Shown in pieces: positions 1 through 11,165 of a DNA stretch of 31,901 nt. The position numbers and the translations under genes are program-made. Each line of letters begins with the position of its first letter. The stretch's first letter is position 1. A model generated the notes under the pieces. That model saw only the letters and a program-made list of their open reading frames with translations. It ran no database searches and had not been told where the DNA came from. The DNA comes from a virus (Duplodnaviria; Heunggongvirae; Uroviricota; Caudoviricetes): the IMG/VR virus record IMGVR_UViG_2537561827_000016; one strand, written 5' to 3'.

Positions 1-501
1 ATGCGCATAGTTACCGCTGCCGTCATGGCCTCAACGCTGGCAGTCAGTTCATTAAGCCACGCTGCTGAAGTCGGTTCAGGCGATAACTGGCATCCGGGTG
101 AAGAACTTACGCAGCGCAGTACGCAGAGCCATATGTTCGACGGCATAAGTTTAACCGAACATCAGCGTCAGCAGATGCGAGATCTTATGCAACAGGCCCG
201 GCACGAACAGCCTCCTGTTAATGTTAGCGAACTGGAGACAATGCATCGCCTTGTCACCGCAGAAAATTTTGATGAAAACGCTGTGCGCGCACAGGCAGAA
301 AAAATGGCGAATGAGCAAATTGCTCGTCAGGTTGAGATGGCAAAAGTCCGCAACCAAATGTATCGCCTGTTAACGCCGGAGCAGCAAGCGGTTTTAAACG
401 AGAAACATCAACAACGAATGGAGCAGTTGCGCGACGTGACGCAATGGCAAAAAAGTTCATCGTTGAAGCTATTGAGTAGTAGCAACTCACGTTCCCAGTA
501 G
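1..501 (+). CDS. cpxP: Periplasmic stress adaptor CpxP (host gene flanking the prophage)
   Basis: The 166-aa translation reads as enterobacterial CpxP from my recall (signal peptide [36 protein letters not shown] and [22 protein letters not shown] motifs). Followed by a strong intrinsic terminator. Confidence 0.93.
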
Positions 502-541
502 TAAACCCTGTTTTCCTTGCCATAGACACCATCCCTGTCTT

Positions 542-568
542 CCCCCACATGATGTGGGGGTTTTTTTT
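542..568 (+). terminator. Rho-independent terminator of cpxP
   Basis: GC-rich inverted repeat cccccacat / atgtggggg followed directly by a run of eight T. Confidence 0.8.
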
Positions 569-687
569 ATCAATTACTTACATGCAATCAAAAGTAAAAA
601 CAGTCACTTATCGAAAGCTGTAAGGGTTTGGAGTGGTTTCAAAATTTCTTGAGTGTGGACACTATGTGGACACTCAGAGGGGGAAAT

Positions 688-1668
688 TTATAACGTCACT
701 CCGCCTTTTAGTGGATTCAGAGCGACGGCATTTTGCAGGTAGTCAGGCGCAAGGTGCGCATAGGCCATCGTCTGCTGAATGCTCGCATGTCCCAGAATCT
801 GTTGCAGTGCGATTATATTGCCCCCATTCATCATGAAATGGCTTGCGAATGTATGCCGCAGGATGTGGGTTGCCTGATTGGGTGGTATATCAGGTTTCAC
901 TCTGCGTAAAATCCCGCAAAATTTCTCATAATCAACTTTGAATAATTTGGCGCTGGCCTCCTCTTTAACTTTTTTCTCCAGTTCCTCAGAAATCGGCACG
1001 GTTCGCTTTTTACCGTTTTTGGTTTTCAGGAAGGTAACCCTGCAATTTGTAATCTGTGCTGGTTTTAGCGTGGCAACTTCCGTCCATCTTCCTCCAGTGC
1101 TCAGACATAAAAGCGCGACAAGTAAGTCATCACCAGCCAAAACATTTAACAGTTTTGCGATTTCTGCTTTTTCCAGGAACGTCATTTCAGGGTTGGCCTC
1201 CGCCAGTGGCGGCAGTCCGTGAATTGGGGGTTGCCCGGAAAATTCATCCAATTGAATTAATTTTGTGAACATGCCGGATAATCGGTACATGTCACGGTTT
1301 ATCGTTGCGGCACTGATACCATCACGTAGTCGCATGGAACGATAATCCATCAAAGCCCTTTTGCTCATCCGGCTCACTGGTATATCACCTATGCCGCTGA
1401 TGGTTTTGAGTAGATGATTAAACTCTTTTGTTCCATGCTCGTGGTTTTGCCCGTGATATTTCCACCAGATGTCCAGCAACTCACTCAAAGTTCGGCGGTC
1501 TGCTCGCTGGCCTCCCCATTCTTTCTGACTGGCATTGGCGATTGTGTATCGCTCAAATGCTAGTGCTTCAGCTTTTCTTTCGAATTTCCTGCGGATGCGT
1601 TTTCCGTCGCGACCGCGAGGTCTAATGTCCACTTCATAGCGACCATCATCGAGCTTCTTAATTGCCAT
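688..1668 (-). CDS. int: Tyrosine-type integrase, P2/186 family
   Basis: N-terminus MAIKKLDDGRYEVDIRP matches P2 Int as recalled; C-terminal catalytic region has HxLRHT-like (ATHILRHTFASHFM) and terminal MAYAH tyrosine motif. ATG at 1668 preferred over the upstream alternative start; GAGGG RBS just upstream on the minus strand. Confidence 0.9.
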   Translation of the reverse strand: MAIKKLDDGRYEVDIRPRGRDGKRIRRKFERKAEALAFERYTIANASQKEWGGQRADRRTLSELLDIWWKYHGQNHEHGTKEFNHLLKTISGIGDIPVSRMSKRALMDYRSMRLRDGISAATINRDMYRLSGMFTKLIQLDEFSGQPPIHGLPPLAEANPEMTFLEKAEIAKLLNVLAGDDLLVALLCLSTGGRWTEVATLKPAQITNCRVTFLKTKNGKKRTVPISEELEKKVKEEASAKLFKVDYEKFCGILRRVKPDIPPNQATHILRHTFASHFMMNGGNIIALQQILGHASIQQTMAYAHLAPDYLQNAVALNPLKGGVTL

Positions 1669-1737
1669 AAGAAAGCCCTCCGGCGCTGTATTCACCATCT
1701 TGGTAGCAAATGGTGAAAATGTAATCTTTATATAGAG

Positions 1738-2031
1738 TTAGCCAATCCTTTTCGCGGAGTGGTTGGACTCTGTTGACTCTGGCCCAATGTGCGCGAGAGC
1801 CGGTGCGATTTGTCCTGCGTCCGGCGCGGTTTTATCTGTCATAAGCCATAGAGCATATTTTTGGAATGTGGGATGCATAGTGATTTTTAGCAAAGCTGTG
1901 CCACCGGGTTCAAAGTTTCCTCCTTCATATTTTTTAAGTGTGCTTAGCGGTAACTCTATGATTTCACAGAATTTTGATTGGCTTAGCCCTTCAGCCTCAC
2001 GCAAGGCCTTAATCTTTTCGCTTAATTTCAT
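1738..2031 (-). CDS. C: Immunity repressor, P2 C-like (HTH)
   Basis: 97 aa; the FQKYALWLMTDKTAPDAGQIAPALAH segment matches the P2 C repressor C-terminus as recalled. Divergent from cox, as in the P2 lysis-lysogeny switch. Confidence 0.85.
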   Translation of the reverse strand: MKLSEKIKALREAEGLSQSKFCEIIELPLSTLKKYEGGNFEPGGTALLKITMHPTFQKYALWLMTDKTAPDAGQIAPALAHIGPESTESNHSAKRIG

Positions 2032-2152
2032 TTGACATGGTGCCTATATAGGGACTAAATTCCCTCAAAACTGGAACCTATATAGGTTCCATTGATTTGA
2101 GAATAAACCAGCGTCTAAACGGTTTTGAGTGGTTTAGAAAGGGCTGGATCCT
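2032..2152. promoter_or_regulatory. C/cox divergent switch region with candidate Pe/Pc promoters and operator palindromes
   Basis: TTGACA at 2032-2037 with CTAAAT 17 bp downstream (candidate rightward Pe). CCTATATAGG at 2043-2052, and again at 2077-2086 inside a perfect 18-bp palindrome GGAACCTATATAGGTTCC (2073-2090). Confidence 0.5.
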
Positions 2153-2440
2153 ATGAGGGTACCATATATGGACGCTGAAAATTATGTGATTCAGTATCCG
2201 CTTGATGCGGTTCATGTGGATAAATTTGCTGATTTATTAGGGAAGCCAAAGACAGCCGTCAGTGAAATGGTGAAAGCAAATAAATTACCAATTATTGAAT
2301 TGCGTGATCCTTGCAAACCGAAGGCTCGTGCCGGTGAAAAATGGGTTTTCATTCCTGAGTTTAATCGCGCTGTACGTGAGGCGTTTTATAACCGACCGGT
2401 TGAACAGCGTGATGCATGGCTCTTGTGGATGGGGTTGTGA
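2153..2440 (+). CDS. cox: Cox-like excisionase / switch regulator
   Basis: Position and size (about 90 aa) match P2 Cox, with some similarity to it (LPIIELRDP, WLLWMGL end). An alternative start at ATG 2168 has better GAGGG RBS spacing. Confidence 0.75.
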   Translation: MRVPYMDAENYVIQYPLDAVHVDKFADLLGKPKTAVSEMVKANKLPIIELRDPCKPKARAGEKWVFIPEFNRAVREAFYNRPVEQRDAWLLWMGL

Positions 2441-2442
2441 TT

Positions 2443-2613
2443 ATGAATGAGCCGCGTTGTATTGCTCAGTTACTGCGTAACGAAAGCCCCAGGGCGATTG
2501 ACTTCACCATCACCCACGGGAAGGGGCGCAAGGGAATCATTATCCGCACCAAAAAACAGAGTCCGTTAAAGAAGGCTCTGACCTTTCTGAAAAGCCGGAG
2601 GGTATGGAAATGA
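2443..2613 (+). CDS. Small basic early protein (P2 orf78 position)
   Basis: 56-aa ORF from ATG 2443, between cox and B; Lys/Arg-rich. No recognised domain. Confidence 0.45.
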   Translation: MNEPRCIAQLLRNESPRAIDFTITHGKGRKGIIIRTKKQSPLKKALTFLKSRRVWK

Positions 2614-3110
2614 CAGTGATGACGCTTAATCTCGTTGAAAAACAGCCAGCAGCTATGCGCCGGATAATTGGTAAGCATCTTGCCGTCCCTCGCTGGCAGG
2701 ATACATGTGATTATTATAATCAGATGATGGAGCGCGAACGGTTAACGGTTTGCTTCCATGCGCAGTTAAAACAACGTCACGCAACGATGCGTTTTGAAGA
2801 AATGAACGACGTCGAACGTGAACGGCTGGTTTGTGCAATTGATGAACTGCGTGGGGCATTCTCAAAACGCCGTCAGGTCGGTGCAAGTGAGTATGCATAT
2901 ATTAGTTTTTTAACAGTCAGTCAGCGCCGTACTTTATTTATGCATGCCGGATTGACTGAAAAAGAATTCAACCAGCCATACTGGCGAATTAATGAAGAAT
3001 CATGTTACTGGCGTGATGCCTTATTCCGTGCATTACGTGAATTATTCAGCCTGTTTGAGTATGCACCGACAATTCTGACGTCGGTTAAACCAGAGCAATA
3101 TCTGCATTAA
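2604..3110 (+). CDS. B: Replication protein B-like (putative helicase loader)
   Basis: 168 aa, same position and size as P2 gpB; GGAGGG RBS upstream of ATG 2604. Identity inferred mainly from synteny. Confidence 0.6.
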   Translation: MEMTVMTLNLVEKQPAAMRRIIGKHLAVPRWQDTCDYYNQMMERERLTVCFHAQLKQRHATMRFEEMNDVERERLVCAIDELRGAFSKRRQVGASEYAYISFLTVSQRRTLFMHAGLTEKEFNQPYWRINEESCYWRDALFRALRELFSLFEYAPTILTSVKPEQYLH

Positions 3111-3173
3111 ATAATTAACCAGAGTTTTTAACGCACTTAATCGTGCGGGGCTTCTTTTTGCCTGGAGAAAGTC

Positions 3174-3398
3174 ATGCATACAGTTTCTGAAAATCAGTGC
3201 GGTAAATACGCATTACTGCTGCAACAGGCCAGAACCGAAGCACAGGCCGATGCAGCGACGCGCTTTTCTTCTCATCTTGACGCCATGATTCGCCACATCA
3301 CAAAGGCGGAGTTATCCCGCGTGGAGATAGTCGAGCTGCTCAGTCAGGAGTCGGAAAAATTTCACAATATCGGATTGTCTCGCGGGGAGGTGCTTTGA
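3174..3398 (+). CDS. Hypothetical early protein (P2 orf80 position)
   Basis: 74-aa ORF in the early rightward operon; end overlaps the next ORF start (ATGA). Confidence 0.5.
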
Positions 3399-3697
3399 TG
3401 TCCTGTTCTCGTTCAGTTGTATTACTGAACAATGCCTTAAAAATCTCCGTTATGAAAAATGGCGATTTGTCTCTTATTCAACTTAGGCTTGATAAAGAAA
3501 AACACGAAATAACTGAATCTGTTATCGCGATTTATCAGAACGAATTAAACCTCCTGTCTGATGTGGTCAATTTACTTGTGAAACGCGCTGTATTTCACAA
3601 GCAAATTTCCTCCGTGGATGAACTGACAAAATTAACGACAGAACTTGTCATTTATTGCGCTGATGTATCCAGGAAACTTAACGATAAAAGGAGCTGA
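3395..3697 (+). CDS. Hypothetical protein, AT-rich early-operon ORF
   Basis: 100-aa ORF in the early operon; visibly more AT-rich than neighbouring genes. No recognised motif. Confidence 0.5.
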
Positions 3698-3699
3698 TA

Positions 3700-3924
3700 A
3701 TGCCGGACAACGTAGATTTTATTCAGGAACAACAGGCTGAATTACTGGAGCGCCAGATTAACGCGGCAAGGGTAAAACATTGCGGTGCTTCTGCGCTGGT
3801 TTGCGAAGAGTGTGACGCGCCAATACCTGCTGCCCGTCGTGCGGCTTATCCGTCAGCCACGCGTTGTGTTTCCTGTCAGTCAGTCTTTGAAGCAAAAAAC
3901 AAACATTACCGGAGAATGGCATGA
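3700..3924 (+). CDS. TraR/DksA-family C4 zinc-finger protein (P2 orf82-like)
   Basis: 74 aa with CxxC...CxxC arrangement (CEECDAPIP ... CVSCQ) typical of phage TraR/DksA-like proteins. Confidence 0.7.
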   Translation: MPDNVDFIQEQQAELLERQINAARVKHCGASALVCEECDAPIPAARRAAYPSATRCVSCQSVFEAKNKHYRRMA

Positions 3925-4196
3925 GTATTCGTATTGAAATTGGCGAACGTTATGTCGTTACCAGTGACAGCTTTCAGTTTATTCTCCACGAGAGAAAGAG
4001 AGCGGAAAGCGGTAAAAACGCCGGTCAGGAATGGCTGGCAGTGGTTGGTTATTACCCGAAATTAAGCCAGCTCGTTTCCGGCCTGATGCATCACGATATT
4101 CTGACCGGAAGCGCAAAATCTTTTGCTGATTTAAACGCGCAGGTTGAGCAACTCAGCAAGCGTTGTTCAGAGGCTTTTGGCTCATATGGCCGTTAA
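3921..4196 (+). CDS. Hypothetical early protein (P2 orf83 position)
   Basis: 91-aa ORF immediately upstream of and overlapping the A gene start. Confidence 0.5.
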   Translation: MSIRIEIGERYVVTSDSFQFILHERKRAESGKNAGQEWLAVVGYYPKLSQLVSGLMHHDILTGSAKSFADLNAQVEQLSKRCSEAFGSYGR

Positions 4197-6462
4197 AGCC
4201 TCCGGGCGTTTTGTCCCTCCGTCAGTATTTGCCGCAGGCACCGGTAAGGCGTTTACCGGTGCTTATGCATGGAACGCGCCACGCGAGGCTGTCGGGCGCG
4301 AAAGACCCCTTACACGTGACGAGATGCGTCAGGTGCAGGGGGTTTTATCCACGATTAACCGCCTGCCTTACTTTTTGCGCTCGCTGTTTACTTCACGCTA
4401 TGACTACATCCGGCGCAATAAAAGCCCGGTGCACGGGTTTTATTTCCTCACATCCACTTTTCAGCGTCGTTTATGGCCGCGCATTGAGCGTGTGAATCAG
4501 CGCCATGAAATGAACACCGACGCGTCGTTACTGTTTCTGGCAGAGCGTGACCACTATGCGCGCCTGCCGGGAATGAATGACAAGGAGCTGAAAAAGTTTG
4601 TTGCCCGTATCTCATCGCAGCTTTTCATGATGTATGAGGAACTCAGCGATGCCTGGGTGGATGCGCATGGCGAAAAAGAATCGCTGTTTACGGATGAGGC
4701 GCAGGCTCACCTCTATGGTCATGTTGCTGGCGCTGCACGTGCTTTCAATATATCCCCGCTCTACTGGAAAAAATACCGTAAAGGGCAGATGACCACGAGG
4801 CAGGCATATTCTGCCATTGCCCGTCTGTTTAACGATGAGTGGTGGACTCATCAGCTTAAAGGCCAGCGTATGCGCTGGCATGAAGCGTTACTGATAGCTG
4901 TCGGGGAGGTCAATAAAGACCGTTCTCCTTATGCCAGTAAACACGCCATTCGTGATGTGCGTGCGCGCCGCCAGGCAAATCTGGAATTTCTTAAATCGTG
5001 TGACCTTGAAAACAGGGAAACCGGCGAGCGCATCGACCTTATCAGTAAGGTGATGGGCAGTATTTCTAATCCTGAAATTCGCCGGATGGAGCTGATGAAC
5101 ACCATTGCCGGTATTGAGCGTTACGCCGCCGCAGAGGGGGATGTGGGGATGTTTATCACGCTGACCGCGCCGTCAAAGTATCACCCGACTCGTCAGGTCA
5201 GAAAAGGCGAAAGTAAAACCGTTCAGCTTAATCACGGCTGGAACGATGAGGCATTTAATCCAAAGGATGCGCAGCGTTATCTCTGCCGCATCTGGAGCCT
5301 GATGCGCACGGCATTTAAGGATAATGATTTACAGGTCTACGGTTTGCGTGTCGTCGAGCCACACCACGACGGAACGCCGCACTGGCATATGATGCTTTTT
5401 TGTAATCCACGCCAGCGTAACCAGATTATCGAAATCATGCGTCGCTATGCGCTCAAAGAGGATGGTGACGAAAGAGGAGCCGCGCGAAACCGTTTTCAGG
5501 CAAAGCACCTTAACCGGGGCGGTGCTGCGGGATATATCGCGAAATACATTTCAAAAAATATCGACGGCTATGCACTGGATGGTCAGCTCGATAACGATAC
5601 CGGTAAGCCGCTTAAAGATACTGCCGCGGCTGTTACCGCATGGGCGTCAACGTGGCGCATCCCGCAATTTAAAACGGTTGGACTGCCGACAATGGGGGCT
5701 TACCGTGAACTACGCAAATTGCCTCGCGGCGTCAGTATTGCTGATGAGTTTGACGAACGCGTCGAGGCTGCTCGCGCTGCCGCAGACAGTGGTGATTTTG
5801 CGTTGTATATCAGCGCGCAGGGTGGGGCAAATGTCCCGCGCGATTGTCAGACTGTCAGGGTTGCCCGTAGCCCGTCGGATGACGTTAACGAGTACGAGGA
5901 AGAAGTCGAGAGAGTGGTCGGCATTTACGCGCCGCATCTCGGCGCGCGTCATATTCATATCACCAGAACGACGGACTGGCGCATTGTGCCGAAAGTTCCG
6001 GTCGTTGAGCCTTTGACTTTAAAAAGCGGCATCGCCGCGCCTCGGAGTCCTGTCAATAACTGTGGAAAGCTCACCGGTGGTGATACTTCGTTACCAGCCC
6101 CCACACCTTCTGAGCACGCCGCAGCAGTGCTTAATCTGGTTGATGACGGTGTCATCGAATGGAATGACCCGGAGGTCGTGAGGGCGCTCAGAGGTGCATT
6201 AAAACATGGCCTGAGAACACCAAATCGCCAGCAAAGAAACGGAAGCCCGTTAAAACCGCATGAAATGGCACCATCGGCCAGACTGACCCGGTCGGAACGA
6301 ATGCAAATTACCCGTATCCGCGTTGACCTTGCTCAGAACGGTATCAGGCCGCAGCGATGGGAGCTTGAGGCGCTGGCGCGTGGGGCAACCGTAAATTATG
6401 ACGGGAAAAAATTCACGTATCCGGTCGCTAATGAGTGGTCGGTTTTTTCAATTAAACAATAA
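4186..6462 (+). CDS. A: Replication initiation endonuclease A (rolling-circle nickase)
   Basis: About 758 aa from ATG 4186 (MAVKASGRF, the P2 gpA N-terminus as recalled). HWHMMLF HUH motif and a downstream tyrosine-containing region; very close to P2 A. The ORF track's upstream TTG start at 4144 is not preferred. Confidence 0.92.
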   Translation: MAVKASGRFVPPSVFAAGTGKAFTGAYAWNAPREAVGRERPLTRDEMRQVQGVLSTINRLPYFLRSLFTSRYDYIRRNKSPVHGFYFLTSTFQRRLWPRIERVNQRHEMNTDASLLFLAERDHYARLPGMNDKELKKFVARISSQLFMMYEELSDAWVDAHGEKESLFTDEAQAHLYGHVAGAARAFNISPLYWKKYRKGQMTTRQAYSAIARLFNDEWWTHQLKGQRMRWHEALLIAVGEVNKDRSPYASKHAIRDVRARRQANLEFLKSCDLENRETGERIDLISKVMGSISNPEIRRMELMNTIAGIERYAAAEGDVGMFITLTAPSKYHPTRQVRKGESKTVQLNHGWNDEAFNPKDAQRYLCRIWSLMRTAFKDNDLQVYGLRVVEPHHDGTPHWHMMLFCNPRQRNQIIEIMRRYALKEDGDERGAARNRFQAKHLNRGGAAGYIAKYISKNIDGYALDGQLDNDTGKPLKDTAAAVTAWASTWRIPQFKTVGLPTMGAYRELRKLPRGVSIADEFDERVEAARAAADSGDFALYISAQGGANVPRDCQTVRVARSPSDDVNEYEEEVERVVGIYAPHLGARHIHITRTTDWRIVPKVPVVEPLTLKSGIAAPRSPVNNCGKLTGGDTSLPAPTPSEHAAAVLNLVDDGVIEWNDPEVVRALRGALKHGLRTPNRQQRNGSPLKPHEMAPSARLTRSERMQITRIRVDLAQNGIRPQRWELEALARGATVNYDGKKFTYPVANEWSVFSIKQ

Positions 6463-6663
6463 TGACTACTACTGCAGTGTTGTGGGAATGTTATAGTGTT
6501 TGTGGAATTTTTCTATGAAAAACAATGAATTAATCTGTTTTTCATATTGAGCTAATTTTTTATGGCCACAGTTGTTAAAAAGTGAGAACATAATCTTGTT
6601 CAAAACCTGCTTCTATATACGGAGGCTTTCGCTATAATACGCGGTCGGTTTTAGGAGGGGATA

Positions 6664-7608
6664 ATGCCAACAGTAGTTTCACTTTTTTCTGGATGCGGTG
6701 GTTCCGATGCGGGGGTTTTGAGAGCCGGCTTTGATGTGCTTATGGCCAACGATATCTTGCCGTATGCGCGCGATGTTTATATTGCCAATCATCCAGAAAC
6801 TGATTACATATTAGGCAATATTGCTGATGTAACTACTTTTCCTAAATCTGATTTGCTGGTAGGTTGTTATCCATGTCAGGGATTCAGCCAGGGTGGTGCG
6901 CGTAAAGCCGATCGAAAAATTAATACTCTTTATTTAGAGTTTGCTAGAGCTTTAAACAATATAAAGCCTAAAGCTTTTATAGTAGAAAACGTGTCTGGTA
7001 TGGTTAGAAAAAATTTTGAGCATTTGTTATCTGACCAGATCAGGGTTTTTACTGAAGCAGGTTATACTGTTTCCGCAAAAGTTTTAAATGCGGCTGAATA
7101 TGGAGTAGCGCAGGAAAGAAAAAGAATATTTATCGTAGGAATCCGTAATGATTTCAAAGTTAAGTACGAGTTCCCTCAGCCAACTCATGGGCCAGCAACT
7201 GGCGTCAACTATGTTACTATTAAAGATGCTATAGGGCATTTACCTGAATGGCCAGAAGGGGAATTTTATGATATGGGATTCCATTGGTATTATATGTCTC
7301 GCAATCGTCGCCAGGATTGGGATCAAATTTCAAAGACAATAGTTGCTAATGCAAGGCATATGCCGTTGCATCCTGTCAGTCCTCCGATGGAGAAAGTAAG
7401 AACTGATGAATGGAGATTTGTTGAGGATCGGAGAGCTCGCAGATTCAGTTTTCGAGAGGCAGCACTATTACAAGGGTTTGAGGATCTAGTGTTTCCAGAA
7501 ACAAATGCTGCAAGTCTTGGCATGAAATACACGGTGGTTGGTAATGCAGTGCCTCCGCCGCTTTTTGAAGCTGTAACGAAGGCATTGCCAATAGAATTAT
7601 GGGATTGA
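6664..7608 (+). CDS. DNA (cytosine-5)-methyltransferase
   Basis: Canonical C5-MTase motifs in order: FSGCGG (I, AdoMet binding), PCQGFS (IV, catalytic Cys), ENV (VI), QERKRIF (VIII), REAALLQGF (IX) and GNAVPPPLF (X). AGGAGGGG RBS upstream; TATAAT at 6633-6638. Confidence 0.9.
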   Translation: MPTVVSLFSGCGGSDAGVLRAGFDVLMANDILPYARDVYIANHPETDYILGNIADVTTFPKSDLLVGCYPCQGFSQGGARKADRKINTLYLEFARALNNIKPKAFIVENVSGMVRKNFEHLLSDQIRVFTEAGYTVSAKVLNAAEYGVAQERKRIFIVGIRNDFKVKYEFPQPTHGPATGVNYVTIKDAIGHLPEWPEGEFYDMGFHWYYMSRNRRQDWDQISKTIVANARHMPLHPVSPPMEKVRTDEWRFVEDRRARRFSFREAALLQGFEDLVFPETNAASLGMKYTVVGNAVPPPLFEAVTKALPIELWD

Positions 7609-7615
7609 TAAGCTA

Positions 7616-8605
7616 TTAAGGCTCTGGATTTAATGTATAAAGCTCTTCCTCAAATTCGCGAAACCAATCAGAGGTAGTTATCGCTTCCCATTGGTTTGCC
7701 TTATCAAGTAGATATATGATTCTCAACCTATCTAATAATAATACCCCAGCGGTTGCGTGTGTGCTTACCCATTCGCCATTTGCTTCCCGATAGAAAACAG
7801 GCGTGAACATTGTTGATGGATGCTGGAACGCAATTTGGAAATAGGTGGTCAGTTTTAACACGTTAGCCTCTAATGTTTTGCTTGGCCACCCTGTTTCTTG
7901 TGCACCACATTGACCAAGAATTCCATAGTTGCTAGTTTGACCATCAGGAAATTCCACTGTAGCAATTAGGTCAAACCCGGCATCACCAGATGTGGGAGCT
8001 CTATTTATTTCCCTTGTGTTTAAACTACAAACTCCAAGATCTTTTCCTAAAGTTTGTAGAGCTGTCCGAAGATTTGTTCCATAATAATTTTGCCTATCAT
8101 CGGAGTTAGCATCAAAAATTCTTACGGTGCCATGTGCAGGTAAGAGAGAAATCATTGCTACTTTACATACTCTGGCAAAGCTCTTTGCCCAACGTTGTGC
8201 TGCTCCTTTAATCGACTTAAAGGATCTAAGTCTAGAGCAGCAAAGAAGAAAAACATATATTCGTTGTTGTTGGTTTAGATTTTCTTTAATAATTATCTCA
8301 TCACCTGAAATTATAAATGGATATATTTTTCCAAGAGCACTTTCTCTATATTCGAGTTGTGTCCAAACATCTTCGAGTTGCTCTTCAAAACGATCATTTC
8401 TCTCAGCGTCTCCATTAATTTCTTCTTCAGAATTACATTCTTCATCAATTTCTTCAACGCTTGTTATGCCGAATTTTCTTACTGAATCTAAATCATTTTT
8501 ATGTAGTGAGTTACGTCCGGTATAATTAATTACCGTGAGTAACTCGGCTAAATCTGCAAACAAATGAGGAGAGTTGGGATGCATAACTCCTACTTCAAAA
8601 GTCAT
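7616..8605 (-). CDS. Hypothetical protein; candidate effector (possible restriction endonuclease) convergent with the MTase
   Basis: About 329-aa ORF ending 7 bp from the MTase stop, tail-to-tail; overlaps the upstream ParB-like gene by about 11 nt. Acidic cluster EEIDEECNSEEEINGDAERNDRFEEQLED. No family recognised by eye. Start chosen at ATG 8605 after the GAGG RBS; 8608 is an alternative. Confidence 0.6.
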   Translation of the reverse strand: MTFEVGVMHPNSPHLFADLAELLTVINYTGRNSLHKNDLDSVRKFGITSVEEIDEECNSEEEINGDAERNDRFEEQLEDVWTQLEYRESALGKIYPFIISGDEIIIKENLNQQQRIYVFLLCCSRLRSFKSIKGAAQRWAKSFARVCKVAMISLLPAHGTVRIFDANSDDRQNYYGTNLRTALQTLGKDLGVCSLNTREINRAPTSGDAGFDLIATVEFPDGQTSNYGILGQCGAQETGWPSKTLEANVLKLTTYFQIAFQHPSTMFTPVFYREANGEWVSTHATAGVLLLDRLRIIYLLDKANQWEAITTSDWFREFEEELYTLNPEP

Positions 8606-9716
8606 CATCACCTCTGCTATTTTTCTCTGCTATTTCAGAACCTATAAGCTTAATATGTTTATTGATTCTTCGTGCTACTTCATGGGCCTGTCTATCATAC
8701 TCTACCGTGGCAACCATGCCTGCTGCATCTATCAAAGCTGCTTCAACTTGATAAAGTAACTGGAGAAAGTCCTTAGTAATATCAGATGTCAATTGATAGG
8801 CAACTGCGAGTGGAGCCCCCATTCGGAATTGCTCCAATGCCTTAGGGCTACTTACAACAGCAGCTAGTTCTCTTAAATTACGTGATTCTCCTACACGAGT
8901 TTTTTTATCCTCGCCTTTTTTATATAACCATTCAGTTAGTTCTTTTATTTCTTTGTTCTTTAAACTCTTAGAATTGATGATAGGATGACTTGGTATTGTG
9001 TCTCCATCGTCTTCGATTGAAACTCCGACAAACTGGCCTAACCGCTCATCAGCAAGTGCTGTTGATAATACTGAAAATTTAATCGTTTCTTCATCTAGCT
9101 TTTCAATACCATAAAAATCATTTTTTTTAATGATTTCATACACCGCTAAAGCGTCTAGGTTACGCTTGATATGATCCCTACGACTGCCAATAGCTCTGGC
9201 AACCTCATAGTAGCGTAGCATTGGATCCAGATTTGCATTGGTATAATCAAAAAGCTGTTTAATATATCGAGCTTTTGATAAGGGTTCCCATTGTTTGACA
9301 CCAGTAATATGTCTGAAACCAAGGTACGGAAGAATCTCTTCTCTTGTTTGGCGCTCAATGACAGGAACACGATCGACCGTATGTTTTGCATTTGATGCAA
9401 TTTCTCGTAGTCGAGCACTTGGATTTTCACATAGTGTCGGATCGCGGAATAATTTGACCGCGGATAGGCGACGGTTTCCTTCAACTACAATGTACTTCCC
9501 CGGCGCTCCACTATCAGGAATGACAATCAATGGTTCTCCAGGGAAAAAACCATTTTCCGCAATAGCACTCATTAAGTCTTCGATAGATGTTGAGGTTGCT
9601 ATGTAGTTAATCATTCCCAATTGGTCACGAGACACGCCTTCAGGAAGTCTTGGGTTTTCTGTGTCAAGTTCCAAATCATCTAGCGGAACATAAAGTATTT
9701 CTGAATCAGCAATCAT
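8595..9716 (-). CDS. ParB/Srx-like nuclease-domain protein
   Basis: N-terminal region ILYVPLDDLELDTENPRLP ... PLIVIPDSGAPGKYIVVEGNRRLSAVKL resembles the ParB N-terminal fold (PNPxQPR-like box followed by a GxRRxxA box). C-terminal roughly 230 aa unassigned. First ATG at 9716 with GGAG RBS; the ORF track's TTG start at 9755 is not preferred. Confidence 0.7.
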   Translation of the reverse strand: MIADSEILYVPLDDLELDTENPRLPEGVSRDQLGMINYIATSTSIEDLMSAIAENGFFPGEPLIVIPDSGAPGKYIVVEGNRRLSAVKLFRDPTLCENPSARLREIASNAKHTVDRVPVIERQTREEILPYLGFRHITGVKQWEPLSKARYIKQLFDYTNANLDPMLRYYEVARAIGSRRDHIKRNLDALAVYEIIKKNDFYGIEKLDEETIKFSVLSTALADERLGQFVGVSIEDDGDTIPSHPIINSKSLKNKEIKELTEWLYKKGEDKKTRVGESRNLRELAAVVSSPKALEQFRMGAPLAVAYQLTSDITKDFLQLLYQVEAALIDAAGMVATVEYDRQAHEVARRINKHIKLIGSEIAEKNSRGDDDF

Positions 9717-9942
9717 CTGGATCTCCGTTGAACATGTCCACGAGAAGGAGCACAAAGTTATTTCATAACATGCAATATACTCATTCTGTAGCCATAAATG
9801 AATTATTCATGATGTAAGATTCGCGTTGATGTGCGTGAATTCGCAAGTAATTATACAGCAAGGTTTGATTGGGTATCGTCAGCACCAGTGCGGTTCCAAC
9901 GTACTCATGCAACTGCATTAAAACCGCCCCATGAAGCGGGCG

Positions 9943-9961
9943 GGCGAGGCGGGGAAAGCAC
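9943..9961. other. cos site (19-nt cohesive end, P2-type)
   Basis: GGCGAGGCGGGGAAAGCAC matches the P2 cohesive-end sequence as I recall it, in the expected position just beyond the portal gene Q. Confidence 0.7.
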
Positions 9962-10101
9962 TGCGCGCTGGCGGTGGTGCTGATTTTATTTTTTCAGCGT
10001 CTGAGCGCGTCTTGATGGCGTTTAGATTGTGCGCCGGGGCGTTGGTGTGTCTACGGGGTGTTTTGTGCGGTGGTGAGCGTGTGAGGGCGTGATGACGGGG
10101 T

Positions 10102-10125
10102 GTAAAAAAGCCGCCCGCAGGCGGC
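10102..10125 (-). terminator. Rho-independent terminator after Q (end of the P-Q operon)
   Basis: Hairpin GCCGCC-CGCA-GGCGGC preceded on the plus strand by AAAAAA, which is a T-run after the hairpin on the minus strand, directly downstream of the Q stop. Confidence 0.6.
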
Positions 10126-10130
10126 GATGT

Positions 10131-11165
10131 TCAGCCGTTGTCAGTGTCCAGTGAGTAGTTTTTAAAGCGGATGACCTCCTGGCCGAGCCAGCCGTTTATT
10201 TCCCGAATCCTGTCCTGTAACGGGATAAGTTCATTGCGGACAAAGACCTTTGCCACTTTCTCAATATCACCCAGCGACCCGACGTTCTCCGGCTTGCCGC
10301 CCATCAACTGAAAGGGGATGCGGTGCGCGTCCAGCAGGTCAGCGGCGCTGGCTTTTTTGATATTAAAAAAATCGTCCTTCGTTGCCACTTCACTGAGCGG
10401 GATAATTTTAATGCCGTCGGCTTTCCCCTGCGGGGCATAGAGAAACAGATTTTTAAAGTTGTTGCGGCCTTTCGACTTGACCATGTTTTCGCGAAGCATT
10501 TCGATATCGTTGCGATCCTGCACGGCATCAGTGACGTACATGATGTATCCGGCATGTGCGCCATTTTCGTAATACTTGCGGCGGAACAGCGTGGCCGACT
10601 CATTCAGCCAGGCAGAGTTAAGGGCGCTGAGATATTCCGGCAGGCCGTACAGCTCCTGATTAATATCCGGCTCCAGCAGGTGAAACACGGAGCCGGGCGC
10701 GAAGGCTGTCGGCTCGTTGAAGGACGGCACCCACCAGTAAACATCCTCTTCCACACCACGGCGGGGATATTTTGCCGGTGAGGTTTCCAGCCTGATAACT
10801 TTACCGGTGGTGCTGTAACGCTTTTCCAGAAATGCATTACCAAATACCAGAAAATCCAGCACAAAGCGGCTGAAATCCTGCTGGGAAAGCCATGGATGCG
10901 GGATAAATGTCGAGGCCAGAATATTACGTTTGACGTAAATCGGTGAGCTGTGATGCACGGCAGCACGCAGGCTTTTCGCCAGACCGGTAAAGCTGACCGG
11001 TGGCTCATACCATCTGCCGTTACTGATGCACTCGACGTAATCCAGAATGTCACGCCGGTCGAGTACCGGCACCGGCTCACCAAAGGTGAATGCCTCCATT
11101 TTCGGGGCGCTGGCGGTCATTTTTTTTGCCGCAGGTTGCGGTGTTTTCCCTTTTTTCTTGCTCAT
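10131..11165 (-). CDS. Q: Portal protein
   Basis: 344 aa, same length as P2 gpQ; sequence matches the P2 portal as recalled. Confidence 0.93.
   Translation of the reverse strand: MSKKKGKTPQPAAKKMTASAPKMEAFTFGEPVPVLDRRDILDYVECISNGRWYEPPVSFTGLAKSLRAAVHHSSPIYVKRNILASTFIPHPWLSQQDFSRFVLDFLVFGNAFLEKRYSTTGKVIRLETSPAKYPRRGVEEDVYWWVPSFNEPTAFAPGSVFHLLEPDINQELYGLPEYLSALNSAWLNESATLFRRKYYENGAHAGYIMYVTDAVQDRNDIEMLRENMVKSKGRNNFKNLFLYAPQGKADGIKIIPLSEVATKDDFFNIKKASAADLLDAHRIPFQLMGGKPENVGSLGDIEKVAKVFVRNELIPLQDRIREINGWLGQEVIRFKNYSLDTDNG

Follow-up and report, generated by a model that had tools for sequence, protein, structure and literature searches.

PD-lambda-5 is a validated defence system of an E. coli (ECOR7) prophage, in which component A is a ParB/HEPN protein of about 500 amino acids (aa) with a predicted C-terminal HEPN effector region and component B is a MethyltransfD12 (Dam-like, adenine) methyltransferase (Vassallo et al. 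2022). The system consists of these two genes, its cloning required a host deleted for an mrr-containing region, and its authors regard it as a compact prophage version of 'RM+Abi' (restriction-modification with abortive infection). In SspE and DndI, the restriction halves of phosphorothioate systems, a DUF262 domain (a ParB-superfamily nucleoside triphosphatase, or NTPase, with a DGQQR box) is combined with an HNH domain; both proteins read phosphorothioate, and the D-G-Q-Q-R box is reported to be key for NTP hydrolysis in each. GmrSD and BrxU share the layout, a DUF262 ParB-like NTPase being fused to a DUF1524 HNH nuclease. Here we describe a locus that resembles both kinds of system, found in a 31,901-nucleotide stretch of Caudoviricetes DNA (IMG/VR record IMGVR_UViG_2537561827_000016; the window). 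It comprises, on the minus strand, a gene for a 373 aa ParB-like protein (component A, 8595..9716) and a gene for a 329 aa partner (component B, 7616..8605) and, on the plus strand, a gene for a 314 aa C5 cytosine DNA methyltransferase (6664..7608). Component A is not a partition protein. Most likely it represents one half of an anti-phage system of restriction type that is so far uncharacterised. Our favoured explanation, which we consider probable but well short of certain, is that the three genes form a modification-based restriction system, which a P2-like prophage of E. coli carries as cargo in its gpA/portal hotspot, with A as the NTP-binding, DNA-sensing subunit of the system.

Searches of Pfam, NCBIfam and PDB sequences were nearly blind to the pair, giving sub-threshold ParB matches for A and nothing for B. 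A preliminary description of the window had proposed a profile search against Pfam ParB_N (PF02195) as a check on A; this match stayed below threshold (E 0.15, 12.6 bits, gathering cut-off 26.3), as did that to TIGR00180 (31.6 bits, cut-off 58.45), and the family profile of A matched a single PDB sequence, H. pylori Spo0J (4umk, E 0.019), with GNRR of A aligned on GERR. The fold was recovered by structure. An AlphaFold2 model of A made from 45 homologues (predicted local distance difference test, pLDDT, 87.8; predicted template modelling score, pTM, 0.80) has the alpha/beta N-terminal fold of ParB and sulfiredoxin and superposes on several ParB/Srx-fold structures, which at the level of a predicted model settles the question of a ParB/Srx fold. 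The superposition on Spo0J is long and suggests that A also has a ParB-like central helical domain. The last 140 residues of the model are helical except for two short hairpins, and no HNH or PD-(D/E)xK fold was found in the C-terminal part of A by modelling and structure comparison.

A is homologous to the A protein of PD-lambda-5. The PADLOC PD-Lambda-5_A model PDLC04013 aligns residues 9-282 of A with model positions 7-277 of 440 (E 4.6e-28), more than 20 further PD-Lambda-5_A models also match, and so do 37 of 37 diverse relatives of A (best E 1.7e-30). All 37 likewise match the PADLOC candidate PDC-M38A, a model of 715 aa that matches A itself at E 4e-20; B matches no PADLOC model. ParB_N and Pfam GmrSD_N (DUF262) were matched weakly by 15 and 10 of the 37 relatives, respectively, and in PHROGs both A and B are listed as of unknown function. 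Like PD-lambda-5, the cassette in the window is prophage-borne and coupled to a DNA methyltransferase. Unlike PD-lambda-5 A, the window protein has 373 aa and no Rx4-6H motif, and in place of a two-gene system with a D12 adenine methyltransferase there is a C5 methyltransferase of HaeIII type and an extra gene with a restriction endonuclease (REase) fold. Membership of PD-lambda-5 in the strict sense was therefore rejected, since the methyltransferase class, the gene number and the C-terminus all differ.

These results bear in several ways on the preliminary description, which had read 8595-9716 as a stand-alone protein with a ParB/Srx-like nuclease domain, first in an operon and overlapping the next gene. 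The reading frame is real (minus strand, 373 aa, with a ribosome-binding site and an identical RefSeq protein), its motifs ENPRLP and GKYIVVEGNRRLSAVKL are present with GNRR in the GERR position of the 4umk alignment, the stand-alone ParB/Srx fold was recovered in the model, A does come first and overlaps the downstream gene by 11 nt, and most likely it does belong to a defence system. An N-terminal domain of about 110 aa also held, while the remainder amounts to about 260 aa, not the 230 or so given. That this remainder matches nothing holds only in part, since up to about residue 282 it aligns to the PD-Lambda-5_A models, and the nuclease label finds no support in a C-terminus of helices and two hairpins. 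The description had linked A neither with the P2 hotspot, nor with PD-lambda-5, nor with the C5 methyltransferase gene that converges on the pair.

Because the fold is common to A and ParB, and some homologues carry the RefSeq name 'ParB/RepB/Spo0J family partition protein', a role as partition or centromere-binding ParB of a prophage or plasmid was weighed and found extremely improbable. In the E. coli 67-1 record, which is 99.9% identical, the annotation shows no ParA gene in the 3 kb that flank the cassette on each side; the neighbours of A are the nuclease-fold gene, the C5 methyltransferase, the portal gene and gpA, none of which is ParA. Positions 6400-10200 of the window contain no parS-like repeat, just short repeats at chance level. 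P2-like prophages integrate into the chromosome, just seven plasmid records match A, all below 60% identity, and its obligatory neighbour is a nuclease-fold protein. A canonical partition function was thus rejected on the lack of ParA, the lack of parS repeats and the sub-cut-off scores of the curated models, TIGR00180 among them. The preliminary description had likewise set A apart from partition proteins, and had named two findings that would undo its reading, the lack of a ParB/Srx fold and a canonical partition ParB with parS and ParA; the fold is there, and neither parS-like repeats nor ParA were seen around the cassette. A departs from the chromosomal and plasmid CTP-binding proteins ParB, KorB and PadC on these same points and in its different C-terminal domain, in the replacement of the GERR glutamate by asparagine and, as manual alignment suggests, in lacking the Glu-Asn pair of box III; partition ParB proteins employ the GERR box and this pair to hydrolyse CTP and close the clamp.

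The conserved features of A are all encoded on the minus strand. The ParB/Srx domain spans approximately residues 7-121 (9354..9698) and includes the box I-like motif ENPRLP (residues 20-25; 9642..9659), in which positions N21, P22 and R23 vary little or not at all across phyla in alignments of relatives. Box II, the Gly-x-x-Arg phosphate-binding box of the superfamily, reads VVEGNRR in A (residues 77-83; 9468..9488), lies within GKYIVVEGNRRLSAVKL (residues 73-89) and aligns to Spo0J GERR; no variation was seen in its E79-G80-N81-R82-R83 among 45 close and 37 distant relatives. This E-G-N-R-R box is closer to the D-G-Q-Q-R and D-G-Q-H-R NTPase boxes of DUF262 and DndB than to that of ParB, because its glycine comes after an acidic residue and before an amide, where ParB has hydrophobic-G-E-R-R. 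The most conserved stretch of A is the family signature block PYLGFRHITGVKQWEPLSKARY (residues 130-151; 9264..9329), made up of invariant or near-invariant columns with a per-region conservation of 0.59; it would occupy the place of ParB box III, at which A reads Y-L-G-F-R in a manual alignment, without the ParB Glu-Asn pair. The C-terminal region (residues 233-373; 8598..9020) consists of two small beta-hairpins followed by a helical bundle; the motif T-R-x-G-E-S-R-N-L is conserved within it, and its acidic tail has DDDF as the last residues.

A similar box in combination with a nuclease is found in SspE, DndI and GmrSD/BrxU, which share with the cassette a ParB-superfamily domain and an acidic-Gly-amide-x-Arg box (DGQQR there, EGNRR here). 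As in SspE and DndI, the pair is tied to a DNA modification that marks self, and one A-B clade is likewise attached to dndCDE. Unlike these proteins, in which the two functions are fused and the nuclease is an HNH domain, the cassette has them on separate, overlapping genes and its nuclease component has the REase fold.

The partner of A is component B (RefSeq WP_000142509.1, 'hypothetical protein'), whose ATG overlaps the 3′ end of the A gene by 11 nt (8595-8605). No match was found for B in Pfam, NCBIfam, PADLOC or PDB sequences, and its sole match in PHROGs is phrog_3984, a family of unknown function. Its predicted structure (pLDDT 86.3) has two parts, an N-terminal winged helix and a C-terminal domain of the restriction-endonuclease fold. 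A Foldseek search with this model independently placed MspJI first (probability 0.95, E 0.033; modest scores), and MspJI and AspBHI are its best neighbours among known structures. The predicted nuclease core, approximately residues 135-300 (7706..8203, minus strand), carries the motif G-D-x-G-x-D212 ... Q232-C ... W240-x-x-K243 ... D-R293-x-R295, and an alignment of 37 B sequences drawn from many phyla shows D18, E21, R87, Y95-P-F97, D212, Q232-C233, W240, K243, R293 and R295 to be invariant or nearly so. The G-D-x-G-x-D...Q-C portion may correspond to the D...QxK signature of the Mrr/MspJI type with the lysine displaced some 10 residues downstream. Of the two proteins, B is the more likely nuclease. 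As a separate observation, residues 46-70 of B (approximately 8396-8470) form a variable, strongly acidic insertion, EEIDEECNSEEEINGDAERNDR, between helices of the winged helix; its length differs widely by lineage and model confidence there is low.

The converse assignment would make A the effector, as a ParB/Srx DNA nickase or nucleotide-degrading enzyme, and B a weak or inactive reader of DNA modification with an REase fold; we consider this quite improbable. Nuclease and NTPase activities have been reported for members of the ParB/Srx superfamily (Osa, RK2 ParB), PD-lambda-5 A carries its own predicted HEPN effector domain, and B has no canonical (D/E)xK lysine in the usual place. Relocated catalytic lysines are however common in the restriction-endonuclease fold, no metal-binding nuclease motif is evident in A, and the (near-)invariance of D212, Q232, K243 and R293/R295 of B across phyla would be hard to explain for an inactive domain.

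The third gene completes the arrangement of a type II restriction-modification locus, with the C5 methyltransferase gene convergent to the REase-fold gene and separated from it by 7 nt, a layout that is conserved in other loci. The methyltransferase belongs to the M.HaeIII family (PF00145, E 5.5e-65; TIGR00675) and aligns end to end, target-recognition region included, with M.HaeIII itself (1dct, E 1.4e-48). Avoidance of GGCC, which a HaeIII-like methyltransferase would be expected to recognise, was weighed as indirect evidence for its specificity and was not significant in the window (126 sites observed vs 148 +/- 11.6 in shuffled sequences). Were GGmCC the methylated product, hosts would need to tolerate it despite McrBC.

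To place the pair in a wider context, we scanned one genome per species, using our own open reading frame (ORF) calls and hidden Markov models, and obtained 80 loci from Proteobacteria, Bacteroidota, Acidobacteriota, Chloroflexota, Actinomycetota, Firmicutes and candidate phyla. The pairing of A and B is obligatory: in every one of the 73 loci that could be assessed, B lies immediately downstream of A and on its strand. The matrices of pairwise identity of the two proteins are correlated with r = 0.92, vs a maximum of 0.17 in 1000 permutations, and A and B have therefore diverged together without swapping of partners. A C5 methyltransferase adjoins the pair in 44 loci, convergent downstream in 29, co-directional downstream in nine and upstream in six, and these methyltransferases represent at least three lineages in several orientations. 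In a further 21 loci dndC-dndD-dndE, or dndEi, lies directly upstream of the pair on the same strand (Dnd genes were called with Pfam PAPS_reduct, AAA_23/SMC and DndE on representatives, and by iterative searches in the other loci). The sole upstream neighbour found was an HNH_2 gene in four loci, and nothing recognisable stood beside the pair in another four. The dnd-linked pairs are one clade among several methyltransferase-linked clades, and the same two genes are thus linked to two unrelated DNA-modification systems. Because the property shared by these neighbours is covalent marking of DNA, and a nuclease-fold gene is tied to the marking enzyme, we propose that A-B is the restriction half.

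The dnd-linked clade is mostly from Bacteroidota (scanned loci L036, L038, L044, L049 and L053 and about 16 more, at approximately positions 1-5000 of each); the pair directly follows dndC-dndD-dndE or a helicase-fused dndEi, sometimes with a cysteine desulfurase, and with no methyltransferase. An HNH_2 endonuclease-domain gene, of about 320 aa, is found just upstream of the pair and on its strand in several Bacteroidota loci (L046 3036-4010, L067 1422-2396, L066 1838-2800, L040 43-765 and L062 2991-3965), and may be a second nuclease in those versions.

Operons combining HARE-HTH-REase genes with methylases and dnd genes were reportedly mentioned by Aravind and Iyer in 2012. In a later account from the Aravind group (NAR 2024), a fusion of an REase with a HARE-type winged helix is placed immediately downstream of dnd modification genes and proposed as the true restriction component. 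That description fits B of the dnd-linked clade, which may or may not be the same family; none of 45 partner sequences matched Pfam HARE-HTH. The passages of this account that were consulted mention neither an obligatory ParB-like partner distinct from DndB nor a three-gene form with a C5 methyltransferase.

Stand-alone ParB-superfamily proteins of DNA-modification and restriction loci include DndB, reported to be an ATP-modulated repressor of the dnd operon, and DpdB, a ParB-like ATPase required for insertion of preQ0 into DNA. A is like both in this respect, and DndB is similar to it in size; unlike DndB, which has DGQHR and stands at the head of the modification operon, A has EGNRR and is tied to a nuclease gene. 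None of 37 members of the A family matched Pfam DndB (PF14072) at E up to 0.1, on which ground membership of DndB was rejected, and the NCBIfam matches of A at E up to 1 included no DndB or DGQHR-domain model.

DndB nonetheless offers the precedent for a different division of labour, in which B and the methyltransferase would be an ordinary type II pair and A a DNA-binding regulator like a C protein or DndB, perhaps responsive to nucleotides, that times or limits expression of the nuclease or the modification. The A gene directly precedes the nuclease gene, with an overlap, and C genes usually occupy just such a position. We regard a controller as possible though unlikely. A has 373 aa, an invariant enzyme-like box and better conservation than the nuclease (mean pairwise identity 37% vs 27%); in the dnd-linked clade the pair stands at the 3′ end of the dndCDE operon and not at its head; none of the 37 members matches Pfam DndB; and the A-B pairing, seen in 73 of 73 loci regardless of which modification genes adjoin, points to a subunit more than to a regulator. 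DpdB suggests another role, that of a ParB-type ATPase assisting the methyltransferase or the Dnd proteins in modification, which would agree with co-transcription of A with dnd modification genes in 21 loci. This is highly improbable: A and the methyltransferase are encoded on opposite strands in the window and in 29 scanned loci, where the A gene overlaps or abuts the nuclease gene, and HaeIII-type methyltransferases act alone.

Under the three-gene restriction system that we favour, the HaeIII-like C5 methyltransferase would mark host and prophage DNA, probably at GGCC-type sites, for self-protection; B, with its winged helix and Mrr/MspJI-like REase fold, would cut DNA; and A would bind nucleotide and DNA and make the activity of B depend on whether the DNA is modified, so that incoming DNA without the mark is cut and self DNA bearing it is spared. 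Functionally A-B would then be a split version of SspE, DndI and GmrSD/BrxU. A ParB-superfamily nucleotide switch governing a nuclease has a direct precedent in SspE and DndI, whose DUF262 NTPase controls the fused HNH domain. We infer in this way nucleotide binding by A, an A-B complex, nuclease activity of B, cleavage blocked by methylation and an anti-phage function. By analogy with published ParB mutants, A may bind nucleotide with slow or no hydrolysis, since the GERR glutamate is absent. A more specific form of the proposal, which we think distinctly doubtful, is that A acts as a DNA clamp or switch gated by a nucleotide, of the CTP type of ParB and KorB or the NTPase type of SspE and DndI, that scans DNA and licenses B unless a covalent mark is met. 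If so, A-B would be a portable, modification-agnostic restriction head, mounted on C5 methylation in several lineages and on phosphorothioation in one, and a ParB-switch-driven restriction enzyme of a class not yet described biochemically.

Several points weigh against the favoured three-gene explanation. MspJI and AspBHI are modification-dependent, which would be paradoxical beside a self-methylase. The motif of B is non-canonical, the usual lysine position after Q232 being Gly or Ala, and the candidate Lys243 lies in a low-confidence loop (residues 236-246, pLDDT <50). With neither the GERR glutamate nor, in the manual alignment, the Glu-Asn pair of box III, A may bind nucleotide without hydrolysing it or may not bind it at all, and A itself reaches no GmrSD_N/DUF262 model, the weak matches being confined to 10 of its 37 relatives. 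It is not obvious how one module would read both 5-methylcytosine and phosphorothioate. The 80 loci were found with motif patterns from the family of A itself and are a sample, not a census. Finally, a literature search, outside of which fell older work on HARE-HTH, DndEi and the P2 variable locus, found no experimental work on the cassette and no paper naming A or B.

The window is a P2-like prophage or phage, and its first 25 kb has 97.7% identity over 88% to Yersinia phage HQ103. The cassette sits between the P2 replication endonuclease gene gpA (4144-6462) and the portal gene (10131-11165), has a GC content of 36-45% vs 52-60% for the phage backbone, and lies in a 3.8-kb region that is 99.9% identical to several E. 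coli chromosomes; it was found in 48 of 5426 complete E. coli genomes at a coverage of at least 80%. The gpA/portal position of P2-like prophages is a hotspot for defence systems (Vassallo et al. 2022).

For the A gene, a program-made ORF list runs on to a TTG at 9755; the favoured start is the ATG at 9716, which is preceded by a GGAG ribosome-binding site at 9726-9723 and is also the start of the identical RefSeq protein WP_000559725.1 ('ParB N-terminal domain-containing protein'). The upstream control region of the A-B operon (9717..9943, minus strand) contains a hairpin at 9943-9924, a TATAAT at 9855-9850 and this ribosome-binding site. Two terminator-like hairpins lie between the portal gene and A, that at 9943-9924 being downstream of the portal gene, and the TATAAT, seen by eye, is the lone perfect one upstream of A; a sigma-70 scan of this region gave no convincing full two-hexamer match, and the promoter is a putative one. 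Given these hairpins and the TATAAT, the A-B pair looks like an independent transcription unit. At the other end of the gene, the C-terminus of A (8598-8615) is an acidic run followed by Phe, (D/E)3-4-F-COOH, which is conserved throughout the clade of the window and is reminiscent of the C-terminal tail of SSB. The nucleotides of this tail within the overlap (8595-8605) encode the M-T-F start of the partner in another frame, and the two conservations are entangled.

Outside the window, homologues of A numbered 1694 in a word-indexed search and 5007 representatives at 50% identity; of the latter, the top 150 by score are almost all 350-400 aa long and matched over nearly their full length. The cassette with all three genes, the C5 methyltransferase again convergent, was met in four unrelated settings, namely a Methylomonas chromosome beside an insertion sequence element (A-B gap of 18 nt), a Burkholderia vietnamiensis prophage beside an integrase, a Pseudomonas nitroreducens integrative element and a P2-like hotspot in Salmonella (A-B overlap of 14 nt in each of the last three). 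It is also present in phages HQ103, vB_EcoM-12474, L-413C (partial) and Wphi. Wphi (NC_005056.1; L090, 96-3266), a classical P2-like coliphage, has a diverged triad adjoining gpA that consists of orf98 (34% identity to A), orf96 and mth (cytosine methylase). The record of HQ103 (NC_070908.1) labels the A and B genes 'hypothetical' and leaves unannotated an intact 314 aa C5 methyltransferase ORF (L091, 2335-3279, minus strand) equivalent to 6664-7608 of the window, so that an infective phage carries the whole cassette unnoticed.

The kind of system proposed here, modification-based restriction with a ParB-fold switch, is known; the split into A, a winged-helix, Mrr-like B and a HaeIII-like methyltransferase appears to be undescribed, and the reuse of the two-gene head A-B on phosphorothioation systems appears to be part of the same undescribed architecture. 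Cargo of the P2 hotspot makes up a sizeable share of the anti-phage repertoire of E. coli, and the cassette is present in the infective P2-like phages HQ103 and Wphi. In databases the cassette proteins appear as 'hypothetical' or as 'partition protein', and defence finders probably would not call it a system, because only A matches a model. The ParB-like family of A is large, with 660 clusters at 50% identity at E <1e-30 and many phyla among the 80 scanned loci. Because the same module is attached to both cytosine methylation and phosphorothioation, A-B is a candidate for the restriction partner that is 'missing' from Bacteroidota dnd clusters without dndFGH, and the pair offers a tractable two-protein model for ParB-fold nucleotide switches that control nucleases.

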